From assembly GCA_964106645.2 (NCBI GenBank), contig OZ067040.1: DNA of 64,000 nt; one strand, given 5' to 3'. The notes under the pieces are model-generated. The model saw nothing but the letters and a program-made list of their open reading frames with translations. It did no database searches and was not told where the DNA came from. A program made the translations under genes and the position numbers. Source of the DNA: Podarcis pityusensis. Taxonomy: Eukaryota. Position 1 is the stretch's first letter. The number at the start of each line of letters is the position of its first letter. Below are positions 4,907 through 63,677 of this stretch, one piece after another.

Positions 4907-5131
4907 CAGTAGTACCCCGGGTTAAGTACTTAATTCGTTCTGGAGGTCCGTTCTTAACCTGAAGCACCACTTTAGCTAATGGGGCCTCCTGCTGCTGCCG
5001 TGCCGCTGGAGCACGATTTCTGTTCTCATCCTGAAGCAAAGTTCTTAACCCGAGGTACTATTTCTGGGTTAGCAGAGTCTGTAACCTGAAGCGTATGTAA
5101 CCTGAAGCGTATGTAACCCGAGGTACCACTG
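4907..5131. mobile_element. Tigger-like (Tc1/mariner-pogo) MITE, family T1
   Basis: TIRs CAGTAGTACCCCGGGTTA / TAACCCGAGGTACCACTG with TA on both sides. Several copies in the window. Confidence 0.9.
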
Positions 5132-5967
5132 TATTCCAATTCTTGGACATCATAAGATCTGTTGGAAGTTGGAGGAGAATAATAGCTGGGAACACAGTTG
5201 TCCACCTACTTAGCCCAGAAATTTTGTTCTTTTATAGTTTAATATATAGTTGAACTATATATATTTCCCTCCCTGTATGTACTTTCCTTCACTGCTTTTA
5301 AACACCTAAAAAAAAAAAATCACAAGGAAAGCTGCATCATGACTAGCTGCCCTCTAGGAGGCAGTATTAATCCTGGATTTCCTGAGTGGTGATGCATTGC
5401 TAATGTCCAGAAAAACAGGCCAATACACATGCTTTAAAACTTTTATTTGCATGCATGTTGTCTGGGCCTAAAGAGAACAAATTAAGACAAAAAGGTGAAG
5501 CATCAGGCCAATAATAAAAAGCGTGCAATTATTTCAGATTTATATACCTATTGACAATATGAAAATATATGCAGTGTCTGTTTTGTAAACAATGGTTTTG
5601 GAGTTCCGACATTACAGTTTTTGAGAAAAAACTAGGCTCTCTTGTGTTACTTATTATATTATTATCTAAGTGATGTATCTGGGGAGAAAGGAAAAGCTGA
5701 GATGTGAAATATTAAAGGTGACTAGATTCGTGATCTGAAAAATACTGTGTTCGATGGACTTTGATGTTTTCACGTAAGCATGCTTTAAAAATACAATCTT
5801 ACTGTTCTTGGGCTGTGGCTGGCAGCCTAGAAAACAAGAGATGCCAAAACTGATTTCTGTCCTTGGTCTGAAATATAGTGTAGGAGACAGAAACTGCTTC
5901 TAATAAACAATTCTGCATAAACATTGCCAATGGAGTCACCTCATTGGATAAGGCCTTTGTGTATTGT

Positions 5968-7136: not shown

Positions 7137-7518
7137 CCATATTTTTCGCCCTATAGGACGCACCGGCCCATAGTACGCACCTAATTTTTTGGGGGGGAAA
7201 TAAAGGGGGGACACCCGAGCTTCCCCCGACCCCAGCCCCCAGAACAGGCAGCTCTCCGCAAGCCGTGGGAGCCCGGCGCCGGGTCCCACGGCTTGCGGAG
7301 AGCTGCACGAAGCTAAGCCTGGGCGCGCTGCGTCTCCCCGCTGTCCCCCAGCTTGTGGGGCTGGCAGCAGGGAGAAGCGGGCTTCTCCCCGCCGCCAGCC
7401 TCCAAACCAGGTCGGGGGATAGCGGGAAGGCGCGCTGCATTCGCCCCATAGGACGCACACACATTTCCCCTTCATTTTTGGAGGGGAAAAAGTGCGTCCT
7501 ATAGGGCGAAAAATACGG
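7137..7518. mobile_element. Tc2/pogo-type MITE, family P, copy A (complete)
   Basis: TIR CC(A/G)TATTTTTCGCCCTATAGGACGCAC / GTGCGTCCTATAGGGCGAAAAATACGG, TA TSD, repeated subterminal TAGGACGCAC motif, palindromic GC-rich interior. Confidence 0.9.
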
Positions 7519-10802: not shown

Positions 10803-11043
10803 CAGTGGTACCTCGGGTTAAGAACTTAATTCGTTCTGGAGGTCCGTTCTTAACCTGAAACTGTTCTTAACCTGAAGCACCACTTTAGCTAATGAGGCCT
10901 CCAGCTGCCACTGCGCCACCGCCGCACGATTTCTGTTCTCTTCCTGAAGCAAAGTTCTTAACCCGAGGTACTATTTCTGGGTTAGCGGAGTCTGTAACCT
11001 GAAGCGTCTGTAACCTGAAGTGTCTGTAACCGAGGTACCACTG
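10803..11043. mobile_element. Tigger-like MITE, family T1
   Basis: TA-CAGTGGTACCTCGGGTTA ... TAACCGAGGTACCACTG-TA. Confidence 0.92.
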
Positions 11044-11352
11044 TATACTCAGTGGCCTTTATTGCACTCATCCTTTAAGTGGGGTGGGTAGGACTTGTCC
11101 CTTCTGAATACATTTTTGGATGACTATTTTAGATTTTCTGTATTGCTGATTTTATATCTCATTTTACTTTTTTGTTATTTCTACTTGCTAGTCGCTTTGG
11201 GAACCTGAGTGCAAAACTGTGAATAATAATAACAACAACAACAATCATTTTTACTGTAAGATAAAAAATACACAAGGTTATATATTTTACTGGGTCACGT
11301 TCTTCTAGTGTAAAAATACAGTATGTGTGTTTCCAAATTATATGGAATATTT

Positions 11353-15634: not shown

Positions 15635-15818
15635 CAGGCGACCTCCCCATTTACGCAGGTTCCAGATGTGCACCACTGTGCATTGATCCGAACCCAGAAG
15701 TGACCCAAAAACGTCACTAAAAGGGGTGGGATGGGGCAGGGGCGGAACAGGATGTTTGCAGGCATTTTCAATGGTGTTTCAAATTTACACAGCGTAAATT
15801 GGGGGGGGGGGTTCGCTA
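15635..15818. mobile_element. Tigger-like MITE (second family), degraded
   Basis: TA-CAGGCGACCTCCCCATTTACGC ... GCGTAAATTG(n)TTCGCTA-TA inverted termini. Confidence 0.65.
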
Positions 15819-15820
15819 TA

Positions 15821-16036
15821 CAGTGGTACCTCAGGTTACATACGCTTCAGGTTACAGACTCCGCTAACCCAAAAATAGTACCTCAGGTTAAGAACTTTGC
15901 TTCAGGATGAGAACAGAAATCGTGCTCCGGCGGTGCGGCGGCCCCATTAGCTAAAGTGCTGCTTCAGGTTAAGAACAGTTTCAGGTTAAGAACGGATCTT
16001 CGGAAAGAATTAAGTACTTAACCTGAGGTACCACTG
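15821..16036. mobile_element. Tigger-like MITE, family T1 (opposite orientation to 4907)
   Basis: TA-CAGTGGTACCTCAGGTTA ... TAACCTGAGGTACCACTG-TA. Confidence 0.92.
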
Positions 16037-17856
16037 TACTTCCGTTTGGTGTGTGTTGTGTTACTTCTGGGTACTAAACAGTGTTGGTTCTAGGTTACTA
16101 TTGCTATGTAAAATATTACATAAATCTATGTTAGACAGATAAAATCATAAGGCTATAGGGCAGTCACATCTTTAAGAGAACCAACCACAACATCACAAAG
16201 TTATGAATAATTTAACAGCTTGCTCATAACTCTTTCTCATACTGGATGCCACAATAGCACTGTGTGTTTTCTCCTTTTAATCCTGGGGACAGAACTGGAA
16301 ATAACTGTTTCACTTTTTAAAGAAAAATGTGGAGAGAACAGCTATTGCTTCTTTGACTCTGTAGTCCTTGACGCAACCTGTAATCTGTTCATCACTCAAG
16401 AGACTAATATAATTGTCCACAGAATTCTTCCTGCACTCCATCTTAAGACTGTAACTTTTAAACTGCAGACATTAGAACGTTAACAACATGCCCTATTTCT
16501 TCTCCTCCTCCCTCTTGTTATGTTTAACTTCCAACCTGAAGCATACTCACAACCCTGGGACCTTTCTAAAGTTGTTTTTAATAAAGGTATTATTAGCATA
16601 AAGCAGCAGTGGGGAACCCTCCTGTTCACGGGCCTATTTATTTAGACCCATGAGACTGCTTTCAATGAGCCACACCCGCCCACCCAATATGTGACATCAG
16701 ATTGACATGCCCTTCAACTAGCCCTGCGCCCTCATGTCTCCACATACAGCATTAATCTTTGGTAGAAAGGAACCGTGATGGAACATGGGGGCAGCTCACT
16801 TGAATAGGGCATAAGCGTTCTCTCACATCTAATCTGAGGGATATGCCTTAGCTGTGGCGCAGGCAACACAAGTCATTGCTTGCACTGTGCTGTAGCTAAA
16901 CCCCATCCAGAGGCGTGGATCATTTGACACATTTCCATGTGTTCACACTTGGGAATTTCCTTGACAATTTATACACTTTCTTCTTGTATTTGTTTGTATA
17001 GTGAAGGCCAAAAGCCCGAATACGATTTTGCCAGGTGGGGAAAGAGTGCAGCGGATATGGAATAGAGTGCTTATTTTTGTGACATTTTCCCCTTAACAGG
17101 CCTTTAAAAAAGCACCTGGGAGCCAGCCAGCCTAAACGGTTGGCAGTGTTAGAATGTCTTTCATAGCCAGCTATGGAGTGACTTCGGGGGCAAAAATAAA
17201 GTTTATAAGCCATTATAAAAGATCCACTGTCCCCAGTTTATTCAGAGGAAATCTTTAAGCTCTGCAATTTTAAAATAAAGACCTGCCTAAAATTGAACTT
17301 GAATAACAGTGAGTCTCGAGATGAATCAAATGCAGCAAGATTTGTTCTACATAAGTTCATAAGTTCACTCTAACAGGCTGGAAAAGCCAACCGTGCTGAT
17401 CAAACATGACTAATAATCACACAAGAGATTGATGGGCTTGTTTTTCTTATGGAGCATGTGAGGTAATTCCCTGACAATTAAGTTTCCATTGTACTGCCAA
17501 ATAATACTAAAAGCTTTTTGCATCGTTGGCTTTCATGTAAAACTTCACAGCAAAGCAGCCAGCACTGATTCTGCAGTCTAATACTTTCTTAACTTACCTG
17601 TAGTTGCTGTCACAACCTCATTCCAAGAGGGGCATGGATATCTCAGATGGTTGTAGGGTAGGCATTTTCTCTAGAGGTCAATCCAGGACATTGCTGCTGC
17701 CACAGGAACCATTCTTTAAAATCAATAATTCTGAAAACAACAATTTGTTAACTTTGTGAAAATCCTGTTTCCATCAGGGACTTTCTTCAAACAGCTAGTC
17801 TTTATACAACAGCCTTTATAATACACATGAATTCACATGTTCCCTGACTGTAAAAC

Positions 17857-19470: not shown

Positions 19471-20243
19471 TTCATTAGTAATAATAATTAGTAACTGTGC
19501 TTTTTTCGGGGGGGGGAAGGTTGGGGAACGCATCACAAATTTTGTTTATTTATTTAGTTGTAAGTTTTGTGGCAACATGCCATATTTTATTAAACAATTC
19601 TTGTACAGTTGGAATAATATGTAAATGCACTTTAGCTGCTCTTTTGGCTGCAGTTAGTAAGACAAAATTATAGTCTTCTGGTCACACCATATTTTTAAAG
19701 ATAATGCAGAAGAATTTGTCAATGACCTTGTTATGTGATAACCACTCATTTCTGTATATATGATTTTTAGAAACTTCCATCATATATGTATATAGTCTGG
19801 TGCATTCCCTCCTGATTTCCAGCATATATCACTATCACTTGGGTATATCTCTGCCAAATGATGCAGGGTCAATTACCAACCATATAACATTGTATAAAGA
19901 AAAATTATGTTCATGCAGGGCAATTAAACTTTATTAGTGATAAATATTTATTTCCAACTAATATTCAGAGTACCTCTGCTTCCAACAGCAGAAGTAGAAT
20001 ATATCGATGGTACATATTCACAATGGCTATATGTTAGCTCCTGGATCAGAGGTAACACGCTTTTGAATACCAATGAATTGTGGACAAACTGCTGAAAGAA
20101 AGCCCATTACGGCTTCTGACTCTATGCAGTGTGCAACCACTGCCTTCTGGTGTCCTCTGAGAGTTTCTCCAGCCTGACTAACCCTGAGAGGAAGGCTAAT
20201 AAGTACTCCATCAGTAAGGAGCTTTGTGATCAGACAAATGGTA

Positions 20244-20587
20244 AAGGTAAAGGTAAAGGGACCCCTGACCATTAGGTCCAGTCGCTGATGACTCTGGGGT
20301 TGCGGTGCTCATCTCGCTTTACTGGCTGAGGGAGCTGGCGTACAGCTTCCAGGTCATGTAGCCAGCGTGACTAAGCCGCTTCTGGCGAACCAGAGCAGCG
20401 CACGGAAACACCATTTACCCTCCCGCCGGAGCGGTACCTATTTATCTACTTGCACTTTGACGTGCTTTTGAACTGCTAGGTGGGCAGGAGCTGGGACCAA
20501 GCAACGGGAGCTCACCCCATCATGGGGATTCAAACCGCCAACTGATCGGCAAGCCCCAGGCTCTGTGGTTTAGACCACAGTTCCACC
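20244..20587 (-). mobile_element. Sauria SINE (Squam1)
   Basis: (AAAGGT)n tail at left and reverse-complement core. Flanked by a ~91-bp direct duplication (20153-20243 / 20588-20679). Confidence 0.93.
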
Positions 20588-23574: not shown

Positions 23575-24405
23575 AATAGAATTGTAGTTTGAAGGGATCC
23601 TGAGGGTCATCTAATCCAACCTCCTGCAATGTGGGGGTCTCAACTACATCATACATGACAGGTGGTCATCCAATCCCTGCTTTAAACCTCAAAGGTAGGA
23701 GAGTCTACCACCTCCTGATGGAGCCCATTCCACTGTTGAACACCTCTTCCTGATATTTAGTTGGAATCTCCTTTCTTGTAACTTGAATCCATTGGTTCGG
23801 GTCTTAGCTTCCGGAGCAGGAGACAGCAAGCTTGCTCCATCTTCCATGTGACAGCCCTTTAGATAGTGGAAGATGGCTATCATATGTCCTCTCAGTCTCC
23901 TCTTTTCCAGGCTAAACATATCCAACTCCCTCAAACATTCACCCTCTTCTGCACGTGTTCCAACTTGTCAATATCCTTCTTAAATTGAGGTACCCAGAAC
24001 TGGTTACAGTACTCCAGATGTGGTCTGACAAAGACAGAGTAGAGTGGTACCATTACTTCCCTTGACCAGGACACTATACTTCTGTTGATGCAGCCTAGAA
24101 TAGCATTCACTTTGTTTTGCTGCTGCATCACATTTTTTACTCATGTTAAGCTTGTGGTCTACTAAGACCCCTATATCCTTTTCACATGTACTATTGGCAA
24201 GCCAGGTGTCCTCCACCTTATATTTGTGCAGGTGGCTTTTCCTGCTTAAGTGTAGAACCTTACACTTGTCCCTGTTGAAATTCATTTTGTTAGTTTTGGC
24301 CCAGTTCTCCAATCTGTTAAGGTCATCTTGAATCATGATTCTGTCTTCTGCAGCACTGGCTACCCCCTCTCACTTTGGTGTCATCTGCAAATTTGATGAG
24401 TAATT
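23575..24405 (-). mobile_element. CR1 LINE 3' fragment (RT C-terminus and 3'UTR)
   Basis: Minus-strand ORFs give [37 protein letters not shown] and FSLEKRRLRG. KFADD-coding sequence at ~24380. ATTCT-type tail. Confidence 0.93.
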
Positions 24406-30600: not shown

Positions 30601-32426
30601 GGGTCTATGTTTAGAGTTGGCTAAATATTGTGAGATGACGGCATTTTGTCTCTGGCACACCTTCTCTTTCTGATCTGTAGATTTAAAGTGAGCATAGGTT
30701 TGCAGTGCACTTTTGGTTAGCAGTTGACTTTTGTTGTTTGTGAAATGGAATGGTTTAAAATATGTACTGTATATGTATGCACACACAAAAAGTTCTTCTT
30801 GGGTAACTGCTTTCCACAGATGGAATACAAGCTGCTCATTTTTGTGTTTGGGCTGAAGGCTTCTTAGCCTCTGATATGTGTTACATGGTATAAAATGGCA
30901 TGTAGTATGTTTCTAAGTACTGTAATTCCAGCATCTCTAATAGAACTGATAAGTAATTTCTCTTCATTATGTTTAATACTATCTGTGTTTAATGCTATTT
31001 TTTCATTGGCAACGTGTGCATTCATGGTTTTGTTTGTCATTATGGTTTGTATTTTTGTGTTTTTATATTCCAAACCGCCCTATGCTCCTCAGATGAAATG
31101 GTATAGAAATTTAATAAACCACCACCGTGCAAATCCTATAATAAATGCAAATACTAATGAGTATTCATGTAATCCATAGAATAGACTGTTGGACTACTTC
31201 CTGGTAGATCTAGTTTCAGTTCCTTCATCTGCAGTAATTTTACTGCTTAGCTCAAACAAGTCACTTTCAACGTGTGAAAGAAGAGTGATAGTACCAAGCC
31301 TCCTCTGCAGAAATGAGCTTTGTATACATGCATTCAATGAGTCTTGTGAATTAGGATTTTTAGTGCCGGCAATAGTACTTTTGGCAGACGTATCCAGTAA
31401 CTTAATACACAGGTATTAAAAACTGAGTGTCACCCGCCCCAGAGAATCAAGCTATACACATCTAAGACTTCAATGGAGAATAGCTGGGCAGGAGTTAATA
31501 TCCACAAGGGTAGCTCGGTAACTATATGTATTTATTTGGTGTGAAGGAATTAGTTTGTGGTTTGGGTTATTTAGCTAACATGCACACCATACGCACAAGA
31601 AGGAACTAGGCATAGGAGAAAATTAGGAGGGGGAGGTCGAGTTCAGCACAACTCTGGGAGGCAAACTAGCCTTCTCTTTCTCTGGGCTCACTTTGCAGAG
31701 TAGGCTTCAGACAATCAAAGCTGGGCAGGGAGTACCAGAGGCTGGTTTCTAAAACAGACGGATACAGGAAACAGCAAACAAATCTCAAAGCACAGCCTCA
31801 CTTAAAGGTAGCAGATGTGGAGGCTGCCATGTGTAGGGAAAGTACCTCTGGAAGACAGGACAGGAACAAGATATACCTTTCCTGGACCTGTTAGCCAATC
31901 CTGAAGAATTGGAACTGGGGCATGTTGAAACTAGGTCAGGAAGGGAAAATAGAAATGCAGCAGGCAAGAGGAGGCCCAGAAATGTTTATTATTATTATTT
32001 ATTTATTTCACAAGATTTATACTCTACTTGAGATTGTATATTAAAAATAATCAAAGTGGTTTACAAAAAGATAAAACAATAAATAGCTGTATAGATTGAT
32101 ACAATATATATTTGATTTTTAGTGCCACACATATAATACTAAAATATTCAGTTATATCAGTTTAAAATCCTACGGAATAAATGAATAAGTGTGTCCCTCA
32201 TAGATATTACACTTCTTGAGTTCCAAAGGAACCCAAACATAATTCAGGAATGCCACATTGACCATATTTACAGACAGAAATATCTGGATTTTCTGCTTGA
32301 TGAACTACTCCTTACAGTGAAACTTTTGTGAACTGTAAGCCTTTCTGGCTTGCAGAAATCAGCATTGTGTGAACATAGCATACTGTATATGCCTAAGTGG
32401 AAAGAATTTAATGCAGATTCTTTGGA

Positions 32427-32560
32427 GGTATAAGCAAACTCAGCCCTCCAGAGGTTTGGGGATTACAACTTCCATCATCCCTAGCTAATAGGACCAGTGG
32501 TTAGGGATGATGGGAGTTGTAGTCCCAAAACATTTGGAGGGCCGAGTTTGCCTATGCCTG
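32427..32560. mobile_element. Palindromic hAT-type MITE (related partial copies at ~54905-54985, 57712-57771, 59235-59350, 63903-63945)
   Basis: Whole element is an imperfect inverted repeat (GCAAACTCAGCCCTCCAGA...TGGAGGGCCGAGTTTGC). Flanks CTTTGGA / CTTTGGAC. Confidence 0.82.
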
Positions 32561-34286: not shown

Positions 34287-34732
34287 AAAGGGAGAGAAAA
34301 AGAAGTGAATAAAATGTTGCTATCGTTAGGCTGCTATCCTAAGCATAATTGCTTGGAAGCCAAATAAACATGGTTAGGAATTGGGGTGTTTGGCTTGTTT
34401 GCTTCACTTGTGTAATTTCTGAAGCCCTCTGTATTATAAAGTAGCTGTGTTTAACAATAGTTTCTTTTCTTCCTCCCTCTGAACATTTTCATTGGGGCTT
34501 TGTTTGCCACCCTGGTCTGCACAAACAAGTAATTGTGGGGTTCTTCAACCACCACCACCTTTGTTGGTTCTGTTGGCTCATTCACAAAATCCACTATGAG
34601 TTTTCTTGAACATGTTGTTATTGTTGTTGGCATCTATCTGTCTTGGGAGACAATGGAAGAGTTCACCTTCAGGGGTAAAGTCAAACTGTTGGCCAGTTAC
34701 AAAGCCTGCTGTGGCTGTAAGGACCGAAGCCA

Positions 34733-34963
34733 CTGTGGGACCTCAGGTTACAAATGCTTCGGGTTACAAACGCTTCAGGTTACAGACTCTTCTAACCCAG
34801 AAGTAGTACCTTGGGTTAAGAACTTTACTTCAGGATAAGAACAGAAGTCGCACGGAAGCGGCGGGAGGTCCCATTAGCTAAAGGGGTACCTCACGTTAAG
34901 AACAGTTTCAGGTTAAGAACGGACCTCCAGAACGAATTAAGTTCTTAACCAGAGGTCCCACTG
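34733..34963. mobile_element. Tigger-like MITE, family T1
   Basis: CTGTGGGACCTCAGGTTA ... TAACCAGAGGTCCCACTG-TA. Same interior as 15821. Confidence 0.88.
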
Positions 34964-34967
34964 TATT

Positions 34968-35102
34968 CATAGAATTGCAGAGTTGGAAGTAATCACAAGG
35001 GTCATCTAGTCCAACCCCCTGCCATGCAGGAATGTTTTGCCCAACTTGGGGCTTGAACCCACAACCTTGAGATTAAGAGTCGCATGCACTATTGACTGAG
35101 CT
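34968..35102 (-). mobile_element. tRNA-Lys(CTT)-derived SINE with CR1-type 3' tail
   Basis: Reverse complement of 35039-35102 is AGCTCAGTCAATAGTGCATGCGACTCTTAATCTCAAGGTTGTGGGTTCAAGCCCCAAGTTGGGC (tRNA-Lys-CTT-like). It is followed by GGGTTGGACTAGATGACCC...ATTCTATG, matching the CR1 tail at 23575-23630. Confidence 0.85.
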
Positions 35103-36659: not shown

Positions 36660-37560
36660 CTGTTGAGTGGCGAGTGTGTTAAGTGCGTGTCTGCGTGGTG
36701 CGACTGGAGAACTTGGGCCAGTCGGCCAGAACCTTCAGCGAGGCTGCTCTTTCAACAGGCGATTTGTTCGCCTGTCTGGGGCTCATTGCCATGCGAAAGG
36801 GGCTGACATCAGAGCACCTTTTGTTGCTAAAAGCTCTTTTCTCTGGAGAGAGACAGAGAGAGCAGTCATGTGGAGATGGGAGAGCCCATGTAGAGGGAAA
36901 GGGGGGAGGCAGAGAATTAGAGTTACCTACGAACTGAAAACTCAGCGCTGGCTCCTGATTTGAGGAGGGGGAACCTTACCGAAAGACTTCCTTTGGTGCC
37001 AGATGTATTTTGGGCCTGTGGGAAGCGATTCCCTCTCCCCAAAGAGGCGACCGCGACTCTCTGGAGCACCCCTGCGCGAGGGAAAGGTGGTCACGGCCAG
37101 CTTTGCTTTGCCACCCTGTTGCTCACGGCTCCAAGCAGGCAAAGTTTGTGCGGGGCATGGCAGTTTCTAGACGTGCCAAGAGTTGAGCCCGGGAAGGAGC
37201 TGCAGGAGGGAAGCGTCGGGCGCCTCCTCTGCTCTCTTCTGGGGCTGGAGCCTGGCGGGAAGGCGAAGGCAGAGGCGGCATGATGGAGTAGCCGGGCGGC
37301 GGCGGCGGCGGCGGGTCTGGCTTGAGCGCAGGGCTTGAGCCGGCGGCGGGGCGTGAGGCGGGCAGCGTCGCCCTTGGCTAGAGTCTCGGTCCGGTGGGGA
37401 GCGCGCCTTGAGCTTTGCTTTCCGAGGAGGCGACTATGGAGGAGGAACAAGCCGCCGGCGCCGAACCCCAGGAGGACAGCAGCATGCCCGAGAGTTTCTC
37501 CAGACTCTGGACGGATGTCATGGGGATACTGGTGAGTGACTGGTTTGGGTGGATTGGGAG
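36660..37560 (+). promoter_or_regulatory. SASH1: CpG island, promoter and 5'UTR of SASH1
   Basis: Sharp rise in GC and CpG in non-repeat sequence leading into the ATG at 37436. (GGC)n tract at ~37295-37313. Confidence 0.85.
37436..37531 (+). CDS. SASH1: SAM and SH3 domain-containing protein 1, first coding exon (32 aa)
   Basis: MEEEQAAGAEPQEDSSMPESFSRLWTDVMGIL. FSRLWTDVMGIL matches the SASH1 N-terminus. Donor GTGAGT at 37532, phase 0. Confidence 0.96.
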
Positions 37561-44702: not shown

Positions 44703-45049
44703 GGGACGCGGATGGCACTGTGGGTTAAACCACAGAGCCTAGGACTTGCCGATCAGAAGGTCGGCGGTTCGAATCCCGCGATGGGGTGAGCTCCCGTTGC
44801 TTGGTCCCTGCTCCTGCCAACCTAGCAGCTTGAAAGCACGTCAAAGTGCAAGTAGATAAATAGGTACCGCTCCGGCGGGAAGGTAAATGGCATTTCCGTG
44901 CGCTGCTCTGGTTCGCCAGAAGCGGCTTAGTCATGCTGGCCGCATGACCCGGAAGCTGTACGCCAGCTCCCTCGGCCAATATAGCGAGATGAGTGCCGCA
45001 ACCCCAGAGTCGGTCACGACTGGACTTAATGGTCAAGGGTCCCTTTACC
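44703..45049 (+). mobile_element. Sauria SINE (Squam1), full length
   Basis: GGGACGCG start, A/B boxes, CCTTTACC end. Perfect 12-bp TSD TAAGCTTTCTGC. Confidence 0.96.
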
Positions 45050-45776
45050 TAAGCTTTCTGCAGATGATGATGTTGAAAACTGAGTAATGCAGTAGAAGGC
45101 AACAAGTTGTCTTACTTAAGACCAAGAAAACGAGTCAATGGCAGAGGTAGGATTTCAGCCCTAAAATGAAACACCCAAAATAAATGAGTCGTTTCAAATG
45201 CTTTCAGGGTGCACTGGAACTCAAACCATGGTGTGCACACTGGTGCCCTTGGGTTGAATCATTCAAAACTGTAGGGTGGTGGAAGAGGAAGGGCAACATT
45301 GTTCTCCTAACCTACAACATTGCTTCCCCCATCTCGCCCCCTCTTTCCTTGAGGAGGAAACTACTGGATTCTGACTTTGAATGGCTCCAACTATCTTGGT
45401 TTGTCAACCTGTTTAGAGGTGTAAAATGCATGGAAACCTGAAAGCTATAGGGTAAAAATTTTACATTCCTCCACAGAAAAAAAATACCCCCAGAAAGATT
45501 GGAATATATGCCATATATGCAATACTCATCACACACTTAGATATGCTTACTCAGAAGTAAGGTCCACAGTGTTCACTAGTAAGTGTGCTTAGGATTGTTT
45601 GATTATTTACAAACCCAAACTTACTACAAGTACATGAAATGTTTCGTAGTATTGTACTGTTAGGTATTTCATGAAATATAAAAGTATAAATGCTATAGTT
45701 TTATTCAAACAATGATAAAATATGCCTAGCATTAGTGATAGACTACAAGCTTCTGTGCCCTATGGTCCCCAATTAG

Positions 45777-46127
45777 GTAAAGGTAAAGGGACCCCTGGCC
45801 ATTAGGTTCAGTCGTGGCCGACTCGGGGGTTGCAACGCTCATCTTTCTTTATTGGCCGAGGGAGCCGGCGTACAGCTTCTGGGTCATGTGGCCAGCATGA
45901 CTAAGCCGCTTCTGGCAAACCAGAGCAGCGCATGGAAACGCTGTTTACCTTCCCGCAGGAGTGGTACCTATTTATCTACTTGCACTTTGATGTGCTTTCG
46001 AACTGCTAGGTTGGCAGGAGCAGGGACCGAGCAACAGGAGCTTACTCCATCGCGGGGATTCGAACCGCTGACCTTCTGATCAGCAAGTCCTAGGCTCTGG
46101 TTTAACTCACAGCGCCACCCGCGTCCC
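45777..46127 (-). mobile_element. Sauria SINE (Squam1), full length
   Basis: Reverse-complement copy ending CGCGTCCC. 15-bp TSD ATGGTCCCCAATTAG (45762-45776, 46131-46145). Confidence 0.96.
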
Positions 46128-47336: not shown

Positions 47337-47845
47337 CCGTATTTTTCGCCCTATAGGACGCACCGGCCAATAGGACGCACCTAGTTTTCAGGGGGGGGAA
47401 ATCAAGTAAAAAAATATGATCCCCCCCCCCCGCAGCTCTGGGAGCAGTGGACAGGTTGCACGCAGCCTGTGCGCTACTCCAAGACCTTCTCCCTGCTTTT
47501 GTGGGAGGTGGCGGAATTCCCCCACCTCCCGCAAAAGCCCACAGGAGCCCAGCGTGACTCCTGCGAGCTTTTCGACCAGGAAGGAGAAGGGACTGAAACG
47601 GCCAGTCAGTCCCTTCTCCCTCCTCGAGGAAAAGCCCCCAAGAGCGGTGCGCTCTTTAAAGGGTGTGCGGCTCCTGCGGGCTTTTCTAGGAGGTGGGGGA
47701 ATTCCCCCCCCCTCGTAGAAAAGCCAGCAGAAGCCACGGAGCCCATTTAACGAGTGCGCGGCTTTTGCCTGCTTTTGCAGGAGGTGGGGGAATTCCCCCA
47801 TCTCCTGCAAAAGCCCACAGGAAGGTTGGAGAGTAGCGGGAAGGC
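47337..47845. mobile_element. Tc2/pogo-type MITE, family P, copy B (right end missing)
   Basis: TA-CCGTATTTTTCGCCCTATAGGACGCACCGGCC..TAGGACGCAC left end as in copy A. Hairpin interior. Stops at AGCGGGAAGGC, where copy A continues into its right TIR. Confidence 0.88.
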
Positions 47846-47926
47846 TATAGAGTGAGATGAGCGCACAACCCTAGAGTCTGTCAAGACTGGCCCGTACGGG
47901 CAGGGGTACCTTTACCTTTTTACCTT
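47845..47926 (+). mobile_element. 5'-truncated Sauria SINE 3' end (different subfamily)
   Basis: GAGATGAGCGCACAACCCTAGAGTC...GGGGTACCTTTACCTTT, homologous to but diverged from the other four SINE tails. Confidence 0.8.
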
Positions 47927-52000: not shown

Positions 52001-52955
52001 ACACAGTAAAGCAGTGGTGCTGTGAACTCCTGCCCCCAGACCCTTTCACATATATTGTTTATTGGTTGGTTGAATATAAAATAAACACTTGATTAGTTAA
52101 GTGATTGAACAAGACTACTGTAATGTGGCCTAGTTGCTATTGGGCCATAAACCTCAATATATCTGCCTTCCTACCTCCTAAGGCCCTCAGAGAACAACAG
52201 AAAAAAATTAATTGATTTACCAGTCATAGTTATACTTTTGTGAATTATTCTAACTCCTCGTACTCATGTTATTTAAATGCGGCCTTTTTGTCTCTCTACT
52301 TCCAGAATTGTATAGCCCCTTTGACTTTGTAAGCTGAAAAGCTAAACAGAATGTCATTGTTTATATCCTTTAGGCAGTAACACCCAATTTTGTAGCAGTT
52401 AAGGATTTCCACAGGAACTCTCTTTCTGGAAGTGGATGGATTGCAGCTAGCAGAGCTGTAATGCACAATTCTTGTTTGTGTACCCTTTCTGTTCTGCTAA
52501 TAAGAAATTTTTATGTGATTTGGATAATAGGCGTTTTCGGAAGCTGCGTTTCATGACGTTGGTAGTTAAGGGAACATATTTCTGCCATAATCGGTTTGAC
52601 TGATCTTGTGCCAGAGCCTTACCAACAACATGGAGTTGTTGTTAGAATGAAAAGAGTGGGATAGAAATATGATAAATCTGTTTTCTGATTAAAAAAAATG
52701 ACTGTAAAAACCAGTCCACGTTTACTTTGCATGTATATCTTACTGGAACCTGAGGTCTTTGGAATTAGGCTGGGTAGCAAGTAATCTTGCACCCTGCATT
52801 GTAAATAGCTGGCTTCATCTGCAAAGTGCATAACACCAGTGGACACAAACTACTGTAGCCTTAAAGCCAGTTAGGAATGTACAGTACAGTTTGAGGAAAT
52901 TATTTACATATGTCAGTTTTCTGTAGTTGCACACTAATCATAATACTTCCCAGTA

Positions 52956-53049
52956 CAGTGGTACCTCGGGTTAAGAACTTAATTCATTCTGGAGGTCTGT
53001 TCTTAACCTGAAACTGTTCTTAACCTGAAGACCACTTTAGCTAATGGGG

Positions 53050-53081
<32 letters not shown>

Positions 53082-53195
53082 GCCACCGGAGCACAATTTC
53101 TGTTTTCACCCTGAAGCAAAGTACTTAACCCAAGGTACTATTTCTGGGTTAGCGGAGTCTGTAACCTGAAGCGTATGTAACCCGAGCTACCACGG
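52956..53195. mobile_element. Tigger-like MITE, family T1, with internal (CTG)10
   Basis: TA-CAGTGGTACCTCGGGTTA ... TAACCCGAGCTACCACGG-TA. Confidence 0.92.
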
Positions 53196-54749
53196 TACAG
53201 TACACATTTTTTTGAAGCGGCACAATTCCAGAAACCAGTCTTAATCAGTTCAGCAGAGCTTGCACCCAGGTAAGTGGGGTCAGGTATTTAACCTGTGTTC
53301 TCAATATGCTTAGTATAGATCTTGATAACCAGGACAACAAATTTGTGTAGTGGTGCACCAAAGGGGGAGAAAAATTAAATTGCCTCCTTTGATGGAGAAA
53401 ACCATTAGATACAACCTGTAGGTGGGAATTCTAAGAATGCCCAGAATTGGCAGAAATGTCATCAGTTCATTTATCTTAATGAACATCACTGCACCTCCCC
53501 CCCCAAAGAAACCCCTGTAGTAGTTTGGAGAGATATCAAGATTGCTGAACCTTCCACTGGACCATAATATAATTAAAACACTTGACGTTTTCATACGAAT
53601 GTTCTTAAAAGTTTTTTTAAAAATCAGTTTTGTTCATGATTGGTGATGACTGTTTTAGTTTTATAGGCAGGTTGAATATGAGAGATACTGTATAATGCCT
53701 CTGTTACACTGTAGAATGTATGAAACTATAATAGGGATTTTTCTAAGGAATGGATCCATGTGTTCCTCAGCAGTTTACATTTCCAATCAGGTAAGGAGTG
53801 GGCGGCCCATGATGGATTCATTGATCCCATTGTATACCTTTCCCTGTTGTGCAGCTGTTTACGCCTCCAGTTAGCTGGGCACCCCAGAGAAGGGAGGCAA
53901 ATCAGCAGGTATGGGAGGAGGGGGCTGATCAAATCACATTTAGCATATGTTTTTAATGCAAGCACATCTTAAATTCCCTGACTGCATCTATCCTGACATT
54001 TCTTGGTACATGCTTTCTAACAGTTTTGACTTTGACTTTGACTTGGGCTGGAGTACTTCATTGACTTCAAAGACCTGCTATCTATAACCTGTCATGCTTA
54101 TAGATACAACAAAAATAGTGGGAGGTGTCCAGTGCTCCTTTTTTGCTTGTGCATGAAAGTTCAATTTGCACAATGAAACTTTCCCTTACTTGGTTCTTCC
54201 TTACAGCCCCCTCCCCCCACCCCGGCAGACTGTCAAAACCTGCTCCAGAAGATTGGGGGGGGGGGGGACACAGATACCCCGAGCAAATGTATGGGAATGT
54301 GTGCAGATAGGGAAGAGAAGATGTAAGCCAGAATAAGCATAGTACAGCTCAAAGCAACAATCAGTATTGCAATAAATACAAATTTTTTGTGTAGTTGAAG
54401 GCCGGATTATTAAACAACCAAACCCTGAAACTAATAAAATCATAAAGTGCTTCAGAGTTATAAAGCAAGACACCTTGCCAGCCTGCACTATCTGTAATTG
54501 TAATTGATTTTTTTATTTTACAGTTTTTTTGGTCATACTAAAACTGAAGGCTCACTAAAGATGTATACGTAGAATAAGTATTAAATACAAATCTGGCTGG
54601 AATTCTGGCTTCTTAAGAAAACTGGCCTACTGGCAGCAATAATCACATGATTCAGTCCTGAGGCAAACCAAGCAAAAACATGTTGATCTGAGTTGAGGCC
54701 TGTGTGCCAGTTCTGACTCCTTCTGGTCTGATTTTACCAGGCATGGGAA

Positions 54750-55810: not shown

Positions 55811-56047
55811 GGTACCTCTAGTTATGAACTTAATTCATTCTGGAGGTCCGTTCTTAACCTGAAACTGTTCTTAACTAGAAGCGTGCTTTTGCTAATGGGG
55901 CCTCTTGCTGCCGCTGTGCCACCGGCACACGATTTCCATTCTCATACTGGGGCAGAGTTCTCAACTCGAGGTAACTCTTCCAGGTTAGCGGAGTTTGTAA
56001 CCTGAAGCGTTTGCAACCAGAGGCATTTGTAACTCGAGGTACCACTG
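55811..56047. mobile_element. Tigger-like MITE, family T1 (left TIR damaged)
   Basis: Same interior as 10803. Right end CTCGAGGTACCACTG-TA. Confidence 0.85.
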
Positions 56048-59000
56048 TATAGCCTTTCAAGATCAATGAGCCAAATGCAACTACTGCAGACTTTCACAAA
56101 AGAACTGCTGACAATTAAGTGAGAATATAAAATGTAACTCGTACGTTTAGGCAGCACATTGGCATGTGGCAAACACTAAAGCCTCTCCTCATCCAAGAGG
56201 GGAGGTGTTGTGGGCGGGACGCGATTTCTGCATCACTCAGGGGGCATTACGCCCCCTGCCCCACTCACCTGGCTGGTGCACCACGCCCACAGGTAAGCTC
56301 CCAACCGGGCGGCTTGGAGGGGGCGTGGTTTGCAGTTTAACTTACTGCTGTGCCAGCCATTGCGCCTCATTTTCCGCCTTCTCGTCGCGAACATAAAGAA
56401 GGCATAATCAAGGGAGAGTAGAAATGGCTGTGGAGCTTGCTCAGCTCAGACTTTGATATGAGCTTCAGAGGCACATAAGACTTACCTTAAGGAAGAGGTG
56501 ACCTTTACAAGCCTCAATATTATTATTTTTACTTGAAGTATAATTGGAGCCAGAGATGAGGAATTCCAGCATCCTTGTGTGATCCCCAGAATACCCTACC
56601 TGCTTTCCTCAAAATAGTTACCGGTTAGCAGTGTTGGGTGGCACATGGTGATAGGGAAAGAGGAAGGTCTGTTCCTTTCTCCCCTTTCTTTCTAGTGACC
56701 TGGCATTCTGCATAGCCATCACTCCTCTTGCTGCCACTGGCCAGGAAGTATTTAATGGGTGCAGGGCATTTGGAGGACTCAAGAAGCTGATGGGCTAAGG
56801 GTGCTGCATGTATTTTAAAGAAAGTAATATACAGCAACTTATATACTTCTTTTTCATTATGTATACATAGACATAAACAATTCAAAGGAAAATGGAAAGG
56901 ATAATGCTATTATTGGTAAAAATGTTATTATTAATATCCTGTTTCCAGATTGTCTTGGAAAACAAGACAAGTTATTGTTTGGGCAAGCCAGTGAGCTTGC
57001 CAGTGGGTGTGAGCTTGCCATCTCTAATGGAGAACAATGAGGACAAGTTAGAAGGTATGAATGCTAACCGAGACAAGTGTAGATTTTTGTGTAGTTTACA
57101 TTTATTCTACAATAGCTTCTGTGTTGGGTATGTTAAACATGGTCTCTTCAATTGTCCAAGTTCAGCTCTGCTAGAAAAGGTTTCTGACTTTGGAAAGGTC
57201 TGTGCAGATTATTGTTGGAGAGATGAAACTTTACTACAGTACCATATATAAATTATATCCAGGTGTTTTCAGTGTAGCAATTAGAAAGAAATCTGTATCG
57301 TATTTACCAAGTCTTAGATCTTACCATTCCTGTTTGCATTTCTTATGCTATCCAAACCAAACATATGTTAGTGCAATGTAAGATCATATTCCACATAATT
57401 TTTCATGACTGGCTTTCTTATTCCGGCTGAAGTCTTAAAGATAAACTGCTAATGTTTGCAATGGCTTTCCACACAGTGACTCTTGTGTCTTGAATTAGCT
57501 CAAATGGTGTCTTTCTATTAATTAATTAATTTATTTATCTATGTATAGTCAGGGCTTAGCATGCAAAGCTTTTTACAGGAGGAATACCCTTTCTCTATTT
57601 TTTACCTCCTCTATTATGAGAAAAGCATGTCTTTCCAGCCAAGTCCAATATTTCATTTTATTATCTGTATCTTGGGACAAATGCTAGCATCGACTAGCAT
57701 GGTCCTGCTAGCTAGGGATCATGGGAGTTGTAGGCCATAAACATCTGGAGGGCCGAGTTTGAGGAAGCCTGCTTTAGCAGAAACAAAAATAGATGAAACA
57801 CTCTTCATCCAAAAATGGATGCAGAGTGGTATAGAAAGGAATATGAAATATCCAAATACAATATGAAACATAACAAGAAATTCAGTACAATTAGGAGGAA
57901 TAAAAGCTTTCAATTAGCTAAAAATACCATAATCCAAAATGACTGGACAAACAAAGGTTTTTACCTGGTGCCAAAAAGCATACCTCCCTCAAGAGGGCAT
58001 TCCGCAGTTGGGGCACCACCACAGAGAACACTCTTATTATTATTTTTTACCTATGTAATGCAATTCTCCTAAAGATGGGCACACTGAGAATGGCCTCCTG
58101 ACAATCTTAATACACAGGCAGGTTGATACAGGAGATATTTTGCTGATGGCCCGCTGGCTAATCTGTATGCATGGAAGGCTAACATTTCCCTCTTCCTCAC
58201 ATTGGCCCAACAAAGCAGCAGTAATGCACAAGTTCAAATGGCATGTAAGAATATCTCAGAACTGGTACTTGATGCACTCTAGCTTTAGATTTGCTAAAAA
58301 TATAATAACCCTTCTCTTAGAAGCAGTCTTATGATGTATAGCAGCCCTCCTCAACATCTATCCTTCCAAGAGGCAGGTTGCCCTTATCATGCTAATTCTT
58401 TTTCCACATCTAGAGATCAGATTAAAGCACTGAGGTGCCCCCACTATACATCAGATTCCCACCTTTGCCCATTTGTCAATATGTTCATGTAAACTCTAGT
58501 AGATTCTAAGGCTTGCTGATTATTGATGATTGTCCATAGCACAGGGCTCTTCCACAAATGTTCTTAAGTTAGGTTGGGCTTAAAAAACAAAAATCTGAGC
58601 CAAAGACTCTTTCTTGGCCAAGCTTATTTCATTTACTTAATGCAAGATGCCTGACAAAACGCTACTTCCTATTATCTTTAACATCAAGTACAAATGATGT
58701 TGCCAGTACATTCATCAGGCTGGTGTGTGGTGACCAATAAATCTAGCTCAGTAAGTACCAGATCATTATAACTTGTCTTTGTTATTCACTCCATTAACAT
58801 CAATCATGATGGTTGCTTCTGGTATTCACATGGTCCCAGACTAATTCTCTAGGAATTCAATAGCAATCCATCATTTATGCTGTATGGTATTATGTTGCCA
58901 AAAAATCTGAAGCATTTATAAGAAGGGAATATTCCAGTGCAAATGACAATCTCAAAAGGAAGTGTTGAACACCTGCTGTTCTGAAGTGCTATAAGTTCTT

Positions 59001-59470
59001 TACTTTTACTAGGTGTTTGCTTCTTCTCTCTTAAAATATGATTTTTTCTTTCACCTGGCTGTTTCCTCTATACTGAGCCTTGCATTCTGTGAACATGCTG
59101 TGAAACAGTATGTAGTAGCAGACAGCACATTTATTAGTTTTTATTAAAGTTTTAACTTATTTGATTCAAGAGTTGGATCAATTATGCAGTATGTCTTCTG
59201 GAAGACGTTTCTCCCAGTGAAGTGGCTCTCATTTAGCGTTTGCCAACCTGATGCCCTCCAGACATTTTGGACTACAGCTCCCCATTAGCCTCAGCTACCA
59301 TAGTCGTTGTAATCCAATACACCTGGAGGGCACCAGGTTGGCAAAGGTTGAACTATAGAATGAATTTCCGATGCAGCAGAGCTGATATTGGCAAAAAAGC
59401 TCATGTTAACAAGTGTACATATCTCCCAGGCCTGGAAACTAGATATTGTTAGTGCTGTTATTTGTGTTTA

Positions 59471-60611
59471 CCGTATTTTTCGCTCCATAGGACGCACTTT
59501 TTCCCCTCCAAAAATGAAGGGGAAATGTGTGTGCGTCCTATGGAGCGAATGCAGGCTTTCGCTGAAGCCTGGAGAGCGAGAGGCATCGGTGCGCACCGAC
59601 CCCTCTCGCTCTCCAGGCTTCAGGAAGCTATCCGCAAGCCTTGCAAGCCCGGTGGGAGTTCCCGCGGGCTCACAAGGCTTGCAGGCAGCAGCCTGCAGCC
59701 CCGGCGAGTGTCCGCAAGCCTTGCGCGCCCGGCAGGAGGTCCCGCCGAGCGCGCGAGGCTTGGGGCAGCAGCCTGTCGCCCGAAGCACGGGGAGCCCTCC
59801 GGAGGGCTCCCCATGCTTCGGGCGAGTGTCTGCAAGCCTTGCGCGCCCGGCAGGAGGTCCCGCCCAGCGCGCAAGGCTTGGGGCGGCAGCCTGTCGCCCG
59901 AAGCACGGGGAGCCCTCCGGAGGGCTCCCCGTGCTTCGGGCGAGTGTCTGCAAGCCTTGCGCGCCCGGCAGGAGGTCCCGCCGAGCGCGCGAGGCTTCGG
60001 GCGGCAGCTTGTCGCCCGAAGCACGGGGAGCCCTCCGGAGGGCTCCCCGTGCTTCGGACGAGTGTCTGCAAGCCTTGCGCGCCCGGCAGGAGGTCCCGCC
60101 CAGCGCGCAAGGCTTGGGGCTGCAGCTTGTCGCCCGAAGCACGGGGAGCCCTCCGGAGGGCTCCCCTTGCTTCGGGCGAGTGTCTGCAAGCCTTGCGCGC
60201 CCGGCAGGAGGTCCCCCCCAGCGCGCAAGGCTTGGGGCTGCAGCTTGTCGCCCGAAGCACGGGGAGCCCTCCGGAGGGCTCCCCTTGCTTCGGGCGAGTG
60301 TCTGCAAGCCTTGCGCGCCCGGCAGGAGGTCCCGCCGAGCGCGCAAGGCTTGGGGCGGCAGTCTGTCGCCCGAAGCACAGGGAGCCCTCCGGAGGGCTCC
60401 CCGTGCTTCGGGCGAGTGTCTGCAAGCCTCGCGCGCCCGGTGGGAGGTCCCGCCGAGCGCGCGAGGCTTGGGGCGGTAGCCTGCAGCCGGAAGCACGCGA
60501 GGCTTGGGGCGGCAGCCGCGGGGGGGGGGATAATTTTTTTTATTCATTTCCCCCCCCAAAAAACGAGGTGCGTCCTATGGACCGGTGCGTCCTATAGAAC
60601 GAAAAATACGG
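59471..60611. mobile_element. Tc2/pogo-type MITE, family P, copy C (complete, opposite orientation to A and B)
   Basis: TA-CCGTATTTTTCGCTCCATAGGACGCAC ... GTGCGTCCTATAGAACGAAAAATACGG-TA. The left ~80 bp is the reverse complement of copy A's right end. Confidence 0.93.
59705..60480. repeat. 118-bp GC-rich tandem array (6 full units plus a partial seventh) of paired hairpins inside MITE copy C
   Basis: CGAGTGTC recurs at 59705, 59823, 59941, 60059, 60177, 60295 and 60413. Confidence 0.97.
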
Positions 60612-63548
60612 TATATGTATACTGGAGGTAATTTTCTAGATAGCTTTTAAAAAGATTTTAAAATGTATTAGTCACCTTCTTTAAACCTGCATTGGTTGTT
60701 TTCAATGTCAGTTTATACATAAATTTACAGTTCATTGTACATTGTTCTTCCAACAGATCAGTAGGTATTGCTTATGATCTCTGACATTGTCTGATATATA
60801 GGGCCTTTTCAATAATCATTGGTGGCTATTTACTGAATTTTTTATTTTTAAAATATATTTTATGGCTTTTAAATGCATTTTCATAGGCTTTGTTGCTAGG
60901 TTTTTAAAATAGGCCTTTAATTTAATTACAGATTTTCAAAATAAAGGTATGATTCATTGATTAAACGTATGTGATAAACATGGCTGGATCAACCCATTTG
61001 AATTATAAATAAAATCTGGTGTATCTACAAGCAGCATTAGCTATGACTCATAAACAATAGAGCAGACTGACAATAAAAGTAAGTTAAGCTTCTTGTTGTT
61101 CATGTTGGCATTGTTATATTGTTTGAACTGTGGCAGTTCCAAGTGAACAAGTGATAAGGTTACTGTTGGATAAACAGGTTAAAAAAAAAAATCCTTGTTT
61201 GGAATTTAATCTGCCAGACCTACAGGCTCAGAAGTTTTTCTAATCAGCTTGCCAGGTGCTTTGCATGCAAGTGATTGATCTTTGGCTGAAGTACTGGATA
61301 AATCAGAGGTTCCAGTTACTTTCACGTTGTGGGTCTGGCAGCTCTTGGCTCATGCAAGGATTCACAAATACTGTTCTTTATGGCTGGTTTCGAACTTCTT
61401 GATCTAGTCAAGAATGTAATTCCCCAAAGGTGGTCTGTTATAGTTATAAGTTATATAGATTGACATTTCCTAGGAAAGTAGTGGTGAGTTGTGGATTGTG
61501 TTTGAGAGTGATGGAGGAGATGCCTTTATTTTTCAGAGTTAATTCTGCAACCTATAGCTGTTTATTCAAGTGTACTTCTTATTATTCTTTGAATATGCCT
61601 AAGTAACTTGAATGGGGGTTGCAGCTAAATTTATGTACAGCTTGCCTTTTCGTAATTTAAAAGCAACATGGTAAAATAACATCTAGAAATCGAAGCTTTG
61701 GAAGGTTAAAATAAAACAGATTGGCCTGTAAAGAATGATAATGATTAGCTGTGGATAGTGAACTGGCTTTCTTGGTCTTATAACAAACTCATGCAATTCA
61801 AGCTATGTAGAACAAAGTTGTGACTGATTTTGTTTACATTACGAAAGCTGTGGACCACATGCTATTTATGATACTATGAGGTGGGTAGCAGCTCATAGGA
61901 GCCAATTAAATAGCACTGTGTTGTTTCTATCTTATCTATCTCTTGCTACTTCTTCCATAGTGCTGCCATTTCTGGAGGAATTTTGAAATAGGTTGAGTCC
62001 CCTGATTGAAGCTTTGAGGGGGGTAAGACTGTAGCACTTAAAGTCACGGCAATAGGTCAACCGCAGAACTTGGCAGACCAGCAAGCAGGCAGCAGCAAAA
62101 TGCACAGAAGGATAGTCCAGTGTCAGGATCTGGGGATAGTGCATAGTGATTTCCAATAGACTAAGGTACAAGCAACATTTTATGATAATCATGTGGTTTG
62201 CCCTTGAGTGCGATAATTTTCTTTATTTCTGTAATTATTTCTTAATTAAATTTCTACCTCTCCGTTCCTCCCAAAGGAGCCCAGGATGGCAAACACCAAA
62301 GTGGTAAAACAACATGAATGAAATTATCTGCAGGAAAGTGTATGCTTTAGGCTCACCTCTCCACAGCTTAGACTTCAGTTAACGGGGCATTGAATTTCTT
62401 CTGCAGCAAGTAGTCAGGCAAAACTAGCAAGCACTCAGGCAAAACTGGTGTGTCTCTTGTTGCAACTGGGAGTGGCATGGTGGCAAAAATAGGATGCCCA
62501 AAACTAAGGAAAAGAGGTCATTGGTATCCAAGAGTGTTAGCAAGGAAACACTTGAGGGACAGGAGTAGAGCAGTCTTGCTGCTAGATAGTCCAGAAACAG
62601 TATATATATCCAATTATCAGGATCCTTGATGCCCCAGGCACTCCGTTAGCACACCAGAAGTTTCCAGAGTCCTAGACCATAACATTCAACTATTTTAAAC
62701 CTACATTTGGAATTGCTTAATGTAACTGTAGAGCATGGCAAATAACCTTTCTGATAGCAGGTACAAGTCTAGTCTTAAGTATGCCCTGAACATCTATAGC
62801 CATTTTAAAAAAACAAAAACCCTCCTACCCAGTTAAACAATCATACTTAGTGTTGCTTTAGTAATTCACTGGCATGCTTACGTTCTGTCTCATTTTATTT
62901 CAGTGCTTTCCAACAACATGATTTGAACACTGGTTTGACAGGAGATTTTGTTGATAAAGTGATGGCATTGTGCAAATAAAAGTGGCTTTCTCAAATGCTT
63001 TAGAGTATATCCTCAACACATATCCTATGGATTCAATATTGACAGAGCAGTACAGCAGTAAATCTTTTGTGGATTAATTTGAAATTGGTATTTCCAGTTT
63101 CATTTATCTTTATAGTACAGGTAAAAATAAGTTCTGAAGGAAAATATGCACTGGCTCAATTAACTTTCAAGTTCTATTACGTTTGCTAATCTTCTGGTAT
63201 ATTGACAGACTACCTTTGCGTTGTTTATAGGTATAACCTGTATGCTAATATAAACATAAAGACTTTATTATCTGTTCTTGCTTTTAAACACTGCTTATGA
63301 AGTTTCTGGATGGCTTTTAAGGTTTGACATTCACTAGCTCAAATGCAAACATGTTTGCCTGGGAAGACGCTTGAATATTGGGGAAACGTTATTGTCTACA
63401 GAAACAGTTCTTTAAAAGTAGTAGTCACTATAATTCTTCAAGAGCTTTTTACATCAAGATGACAAACTTCATATTGCACTTAAAATAGTTTATTCATGTC
63501 CACTGAAAATGGTTTAATAATAACCATTCCTTTCTTATTTTTCTGTAG

Positions 63549-63677
63549 GATGGATCATTGGGCAACATTGATGACCTGGCTGAGCAATATGCAGAATATT
63601 ATAATACCTGCCTTACTGATGTATGTGAGAGGATGGAAGAGCTTCGCAAACGGAGGGTTTCCCAAGACCTTGATGTG
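63549..63677 (+). CDS. SASH1: SASH1 exon 2 (43 aa)
   Basis: [43 protein letters not shown], near-identical to mammalian SASH1. AG acceptor at 63547-63548, GTAAGT donor at 63678. Confidence 0.97.

Follow-up and report, generated by a model that had tools for sequence, protein, structure and literature searches.

Introduction

Tandem repeats carried inside MITEs are established, with miDNA4, the Xstir/Xmix repeats of Xenopus laevis and others as examples in the passages cited here (PMC9659126, PMC12628747, PMC12054243). In Xenopus tropicalis, miDNA4 is described as a Tc1/mariner MITE with an internal satellite monomer, for which microhomology-driven gain and loss has been proposed (PMC12628747, PMC9659126, PMC12054243); a stem-loop replication mechanism has been proposed for Xstir. 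Tandem repeats also arise from a DNA transposon in the case of Tetris in Drosophila virilis (PMC4079207, passages cited), and in squamates the sSat repeats have units of ~70-290 nt (PMC10702118, passages cited). With respect to transposon ends, the closest described element is Anca-PasserC of Anolis carolinensis, which is listed in the pogo superfamily with a DD35D motif and a TA duplication (PMC7386202, Table S1), and the passages cited from PMC7325037 report TC2-like elements for gecko and snake.

Here we describe a tandem array inside a MITE of Podarcis pityusensis. The whole stretch of DNA analysed, 64,000 nucleotides of contig OZ067040.1 (GCA_964106645.2), is referred to as the window. 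Compared with what the cited passages report, the focal MITE has the TIR-(repeat)n-TIR layout of miDNA4, some copies having one monomer and others an array. However, miDNA4 is 63% AT and is proposed to have captured an existing repeat, whereas the focal unit is 74% GC, contains two hairpins and comes from the interior of its own MITE. As reported for Xstir/Xmix and Tetris/TIR-220, the repeats derive from internal sequence of a non-autonomous DNA transposon; those systems went on to form free arrays, whereas no free array was seen in the window, and the Tetris repeats lie within long TIRs while the focal units lie between short ones. The array also resembles sSat as described in PMC10702118, where short arrays come from part of an interspersed repeat and have distinct leading and trailing monomers, but the source of sSat is a SINE and its location subtelomeric, while the source here is a DNA transposon and the location intronic.

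The non-autonomous TcMar-N families of Anolis (PMC3014272, Table 2) are similar in being TA-flanked and abundant, with CCGT/CCST-type ends and lengths of 400-1,400 bp. However, their listed TIR sequences differ from the focal TIR, and the word stem "palindrom" is absent from the main text of that paper. Likeness to Anca-PasserC, as listed in its table, extends to CCGTA-type termini, the TA duplication and a 27-bp TIR with 2 mismatches. The focal MITE differs in having no transposase and GC-rich hairpins in place of the coding region, one Anolis end having been compared. A title and abstract search of the open-licence literature found no description of a hairpin-interior MITE family in lacertids.

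Results

The host gene

None of the five peptides scanned, both SASH1 exons among them, matched a Pfam family, so SASH1 was identified by homologue search. SASH1 is linked to human pigmentation disorders. Two exons lie in the window:

37436..37531, + strand, first coding exon of the SASH1 isoforms with a short N-terminus (homologue search)
63549..63677, + strand, SASH1 exon 2 (homologue search)

The second exon matches Podarcis lilfordi SASH1 isoform X4 with 100% identity and, among the matches listed, those of P. muralis, P. raffonei, Lacerta agilis and Zootoca vivipara with 95%. The first matches the initial 32 residues of five of the eight named lacertid isoforms (97-100%). For these, the array lies where the original prediction had placed it, in intron 1, which is 26,017 bp long; the remaining three isoforms have a different, longer N-terminus that is unmatched in the window, and for them the array is in a later intron. 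Three named Podarcis SASH1 isoforms have an alternative N-terminus of 163-185 residues that splices onto the same exon 2. Since this N-terminus is unmatched in the window, an upstream promoter outside the window is implied. The predicted distance of ~2.9 kb to exon 2 corresponds to the 2,938 bp that separate the exon from the MITE end (3,052 bp from the array end).

The array-bearing MITE

The array had been predicted to lie inside a MITE. This was borne out, and the MITE could be assigned a type from its ends. Its parts outside the six complete units are:

59471..60611, no strand assigned, element classified by TIR comparison as a non-autonomous PasserC-type (pogo superfamily) MITE, 1,141 bp
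59471..59497, + strand, left TIR, 27 bp
59562..59623, no strand assigned, hairpin 0, a palindrome of 62 bp without a spacer that lies beyond the array (arms of 31 nt, 94% complementary)
59635..59702, + strand, diverged leading monomer, consisting of an older hairpin 1 and a short linker
60411..60518, + strand, diverged partial unit 7 and trailing remnant
60520..60557, no strand assigned, G10 and C8 runs around an AT-rich spacer, with a similar block in the sibling at 47337
60568..60611, - strand, right TIR (60585-60611) and, 17 bp further in, a direct repeat of the motif

The array takes up the greater part of the element, which is flanked by TA on both sides (59469-59470 and 60612-60613). Its TIRs are identical at 25 of 27 bp, and the inner 19 bp of the left TIR recur in inverted orientation at 59531-59549 (19/19 complementary). 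The one Anolis PasserC end compared differs from the focal MITE by 2 mismatches in 27 at each end. Across the window it matches five sites at 2-3 mismatches in 27, compared to no matches in 100 shuffles; the five sites are both ends of the focal MITE, both ends of a sibling copy (A) and the one end of a second sibling (B). No transposase reading frame was found within the 64-kb window. Because of the TIR match, the TA flanks and the lack of a transposase frame in the window, we classify the focal element, from its sequence, as a non-autonomous PasserC-type MITE.

Among the TIR-like motifs, all four in the focal MITE have a T at a position where all six in siblings A and B have a C. This difference may represent a change made in concert by the subfamily in the motif that the transposase presumably binds.

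Structure of the array

The 118-bp array with two hairpins per unit was confirmed. TRF extends it slightly beyond the 59705-60480 first given, to 59703-60497 (period 118, 6.7 copies, 94% matches, 0% indels, score 1394). Its components are:

59703..60410, + strand, six complete 118-bp units (TRF, in-register comparison)
59715..59762, no strand assigned, hairpin 1 of unit 1, 14-bp stem (sequence)
59833, 59951, 60069, 60187, 60305 and 60423, start positions of the other copies of hairpin 1
59894..59943, no strand assigned, hairpin 2 of unit 2, a perfect 50-bp palindrome (sequence)
59776-59825, 60012-60061, 60130-60179, 60248-60297 and 60366-60415, copies of hairpin 2 with one mismatch

Units 1-6 differ from one another at 2-7 positions per 118 bp (mean 5.2), without indels. 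Hairpin 1 occurs seven times in the array. Hairpin 2 consists of 25+25 bp without a spacer and, as predicted, is perfect in unit 2, while the five other copies carry a single mismatch each; at least 11 perfect pairs surround its centre in all six. The copy at 59894-59943 is the longest perfect palindrome of the window. When flanks are included, the arms of hairpin 2 grow to 33-34 nt (85-91% complementary) in five of the six units. Folded as RNA, one unit plus 20 nt reaches -106.5 kcal/mol (z = -9.8), and none of 200 shuffles was equally stable. The array is 74% GC and contains 96 CpGs, with a CpG o/e of 0.88 compared to 0.31 for the whole window. No further copy of the 118-bp unit is present elsewhere in the 64-kb window.

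Both flanks of the array are compatible with deletion across hairpins. The leading linker fits hairpin 2 minus 38 bp internally, with 5 mismatches in 30 nt at the best-fitting split. For the trailing remnant, the best-fitting split is a deletion of 82 bp that runs from the left arm of hairpin 2 into the right arm of the following hairpin 1, with 6 mismatches in 40 nt. Both fits have free parameters; deletions of this kind would be expected from slippage over a folded template.

Sibling copies and hairpin interiors

Two further copies with the same type of ends were found, so that three MITE copies with differing interiors lie within 64 kb:

7137..7518, - strand, sibling MITE A, 382 bp, complete and TA-flanked, with the same ends as the focal MITE
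47337..47846, - strand, sibling MITE B, with one end only, cut at a SINE fragment

Sibling A has 3 differences from the focal MITE in the first 83 bp. Its interior contains two long hairpins, one of them homologous to hairpin 1, and no tandem array. Sibling B matches the Anolis PasserC end in 48 of the first 55 bases by eye, the inner repeat included, a comparison with that single published end. Its interior cannot be aligned to the focal interior and contains four long hairpins with degenerate repeats ~90 bp apart; this would be a second, older case of internal tandemisation among these PasserC-type MITEs. A second end of sibling B was looked for in the window and was not found. The copy breaks off against 80 bp of a SINE-family fragment (47847-47926), and its interior is bracketed by an inverted pair (47464-47489 / 47821-47846).

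Folded as DNA, siblings A and B have z-scores of -13.6 and -14.3. When inverted repeats with arms of at least 18 nt and spacing of at most 40 nt were counted over the whole window, 20 of the best 25 of 27 fell inside the three MITE copies, which together span 2,033 bp (14 in the focal MITE, 2 in sibling A and 4 in sibling B). A stricter statement, that every long palindrome lies within the MITE family, holds for spacers of up to 12 nt (11/11) but fails at the wider spacing. Of the closely spaced inverted repeats, the longest one (32426-32559; 58-nt arms, 86% complementary, 18-nt spacer) lies outside the MITE copies and is unrelated to them. This fold-back element has a relative near 57700-57775. 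Because the sibling interiors differ in sequence yet are chains of hairpins, palindromes are, as far as these copies indicate, a trait of the MITE family.

Other repeats were noted in the window. A ~345-bp repeat, which resembles the Sauria SINE, is present in four copies (1337-1676, 20239-20587, 44703-45050, 45775-46127) that are 84-95% alike, with CpG o/e of 0.58-0.87. Another repeat, of ~240 bp, is flanked by TA, has CAGT-type ends and contains a short tandem of 16 bp; it has six copies:

4896-5134, 10792-11047, 15816-16046, 34732-34968, 52951-53200 and 55811-56051, copies of the ~240-bp repeat

Judging from its ends, this repeat is probably a Tigger-type MITE. Open frames at 4078-4599 (+) and 24004-24369 (-), presumably 3' fragments of LINE reverse-transcriptase ORFs, gave no Pfam match at E 0.01.

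Age and turnover of the units

The original prediction described the array as nascent, built by stepwise and recent duplication. The stepwise part stands. As predicted, units 4 and 5 have in common two variants that the other units lack (unit positions 65 and 111). The four-gamete test fails for position 71 when paired with 45 and with 53, indicating exchange points inside units, and a two-unit duplication followed by a one-unit duplication would fit the variant pattern. Recency fares less well and is weakly supported. No two units are identical, and the smallest distance, between units 4 and 5, is 2/118. Private changes in units 1-6 number 2, 0, 1, 1, 1 and 2, or 7 in 708 bp (1.0%; dispersion p = 0.79), which is consistent with one common age for all units; units 4 and 5, with one private change each, are not measurably younger than the rest.

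Given this even spread, duplication looks finished. All duplications may precede a single time point, which could be the insertion, so that the array may have arrived ready-made; expansion in a donor copy before insertion and expansion in place soon after are both compatible with the data. The absence of identical units, in the one haplotype available, argues against rapid copy-number turnover, while six units and 13 events are too few to set aside ongoing expansion or slow turnover.

These observations bear on whether the array arose at this locus as a VNTR or a nascent satellite, with a copy number that is still changing. The units are arranged head to tail as in a VNTR, the two derived variants shared by the closely similar units 4 and 5 speak for this reading, as does the nested and mosaic pattern of shared variants, and sibling A has a single hairpin-1 homologue and no array. 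However, the lack of identical units and the uniform private counts fit one age, and the unit has no second copy in the window. Furthermore, satellite DNA is long, heterochromatic and free of its parent, whereas here there are only 6.7 copies, in an intron, euchromatic and between intact TIRs. We therefore regard a locus-born, still changing repeat as unlikely.

The outer monomers preserve a different state. The leading monomer and unit 7 share states that are absent from units 1-6, suggesting that the edges hold older sequence and that the middle was homogenised, as is usual at array edges. Where the left arm of hairpin 2 ends on its outer side, two adjacent bases in both outer monomers mispair with the right arm; in units 1-6 the same two positions are replaced by bases that complete the stem. 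The unit-7 arm forms 10 of 13 stem pairs compared to 13 of 13 in unit 6, with one of the three differences private to unit 7. We infer that the two-base replacement is a signature of fold-back template switching, which, in the passages cited, can give full pairing in one event (PMC10710096).

The same sequences could be read as the outcome of selection at the level of the transposon, if structured interiors were mobilised or repaired better and the hairpin chain was therefore regenerated. All three copies are hairpin-rich despite their differing sequences, and the hairpin-1 homologues differ yet each pairs with itself. Template switching alone, however, is described as yielding self-complementary variants without selection (PMC10710096, passages cited), and the argument draws on three copies and is compatible with the neutral reading that we prefer. 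Transposon-level favour thus seems to us an improbable addition.

CpG content and variants

The original prediction held that the CpGs of the array were barely decayed and that it could act as an ectopic CpG island. By composition (o/e 0.88) the first statement is correct, but most variants between units sit on CpGs. Nine of the 13 variant events fall at CpG positions, which make up 34 of 118 sites (p = 0.003); without two sites of ambiguous polarity the count is 7 of 11 (p = 0.008), and against G/C sites only the two p-values are 0.02 and 0.04. For transitions alone, of which 5 of 8 are at CpGs, p is 0.049 against all sites and 0.14 against G/C sites, and four of the nine CpG events are transversions, which are not directly explained by deamination. 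The clustering is moderate evidence for germline methylation, as judged from the variants. Eight of the nine CpG events change the G on the + (sense) strand and one changes the C, although these numbers are small.

The usual CpG-island thresholds are exceeded (795 bp, 74% GC, o/e 0.88), and the array equals the exon-1 core in o/e. However, ten further copies of young repeats in the window have an o/e of 0.47-0.87, and siblings A and B have 0.78 and 0.57. Because other young repeats are equally CpG-rich, youth explains the CpG richness of the array, and with CpGs mutating preferentially, an island function is not supported by the sequence.

Cruciform, RNA and coding potential

Cruciform extrusion had also been predicted. 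In the cited descriptions, PATRRs have 1-3 G+C in the central 20 bp and lengths of ~190-600 bp, and an AT-rich centre is a prerequisite for extrusion in vivo (PMC1851657). Hairpin 2 is centrally symmetric but has 16 G+C in its central 20 bp and arms of 25 bp, so its sequence does not support extrusion. Because the centre is GC-rich, hairpins on a single-stranded template are likelier than cruciforms.

As RNA, hairpin 2 would form a continuous 23-bp stem with a 4-nt loop, and the stem extends imperfectly to 33-34 nt. In the local fold, no stretch of the array longer than 8 nt is unpaired, so that there are no free basal segments. Microprocessor is described as preferring stems of 36 +/- 3 or ~35 with loops of at least 10 nt, while loops of 3-23 nt are described as compatible though less efficient (PMC5340965, passages cited). 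With its shorter loop and its lack of unpaired flanks, hairpin 2 is predicted to be a suboptimal, though not impossible, Microprocessor substrate, and modelling thus gives little backing to the pre-miRNA-sized stems that had been proposed. A known RNA family was rejected, since Rfam returned no match at gathering threshold in the whole 64,000-base window. In unrestricted folding, the palindromes of neighbouring units pair into longer duplexes, so some A-to-I editing is conceivable.

Selection on structure was rejected, as there is no covariation in units 1-6: none of 37 pairs is changed on both sides. Changes in hairpin 2 account for 4 of the 13 events compared to 5.5 expected (p = 0.29), so it is not depleted of them. 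In unit 7, one hairpin-1 pair is C-G where four units have T-A and two have T-G; CpG decay on both mirrored arms would give this two-sided change without selection.

All six reading frames are open over 59364-60631 (289-392 codons). This is because the unit contains no stop triplet on either strand, and a coding role was rejected on the ground that the open frames follow from a stop-free GC-rich unit. One of the six array-crossing frames was scanned against Pfam and matched no family. It should be noted that gene predictors could call spurious proteins across the array. A G-quadruplex was likewise rejected, with no four-tract match on either strand at loop limits of 7 and 12.

Taken up by the host, the array would serve as an unmethylated intronic CpG island or enhancer, or would give small RNA or edited dsRNA within the SASH1 pre-mRNA. 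Its island-like composition is what such a role would call for, the array must be transcribed along with the intron, and five of six units offer the extended hairpin-2 arms; in primates, some intronic miRNAs are reported to have originated from hairpins made by template switching (PMC10710096, passages cited). Against this stand the missing Rfam match, the continuous stem of 23 bp and loop of 4 nt with little unpaired sequence, the preference of mutations for CpGs, the equal CpG richness of other young repeats and the absence of compensatory change in units 1-6. We consider host co-option very unlikely.

GC-rich palindromic tandem repeats are hard to sequence, but an assembly or sequencing artefact, or foreign DNA, can be dismissed with near certainty: all six units are distinct and without indels, the TIRs and TA flanks are intact, the sibling ends occur elsewhere in the window, and a blastn search of 72,556 plasmid and 50,697 phage records gave no match at E 1e-3, on which ground a bacterial REP/BIME-like or vector origin was rejected.

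Discussion

The reading that we consider probable is that a hairpin-rich PasserC-type MITE had its interior multiplied by replication errors and is now a decaying, neutral passenger without host function. Its ends, the TA flanks, the siblings with hairpin interiors and the unit variants are observed. For the rest, a PasserC-type MITE would have inserted at a TA in SASH1 intron 1, as a member of a family in which the ends that bind the transposase stay fixed and the interior, a chain of GC-rich hairpins, keeps changing. The hairpins would fold on the single-stranded template during replication or gap repair. Fold-back template switching could then copy one arm from the other and so perfect a palindrome, and slippage over the folded hairpins could add modules of hairpin 1 plus hairpin 2, or delete across them. 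Switching and slippage together would have made the homogeneous middle of the array. Since then, each unit would have acquired ~1% private change, preferentially at CpGs, as for methylated, unselected repeat DNA. The most likely origin of the array is therefore template switching and slippage at hairpins, of the kind already described for miDNA4 and Xstir.

Several points count against this explanation. Thirteen events leave room for mild constraint, and the window contains three family copies, one of them truncated, without a transposase. The two-sided hairpin-1 change in unit 7 and the position of the longest inverted repeat outside the family also fit it less well.

More tentatively, PasserC MITEs of Podarcis could act as hairpin factories, whose interiors are rewritten into perfect palindromes and multiplied by slippage; this is possible, although we would not expect it. 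That transposition also scatters CpG-dense, dsRNA-forming cassettes from such factories into introns, and that the focal copy, polymorphic in presence or unit number, tunes SASH1 through small RNA, editing or a methylation switch, is far-fetched. A regulatory role in SASH1 would matter more than the rest, and nothing found here supports one.

The array is one more tandem repeat grown inside a MITE, a route to satellite DNA that is known in frogs, flies and molluscs. Its specialist interest lies in the family more than in the array, with near-identical ends, ever-differing hairpin interiors and outer monomers that preserve the state before the palindrome was perfected. If this reading is correct, these MITEs would be a natural record, in many copies, of template switching and of how a transposon begins to turn into a minisatellite.
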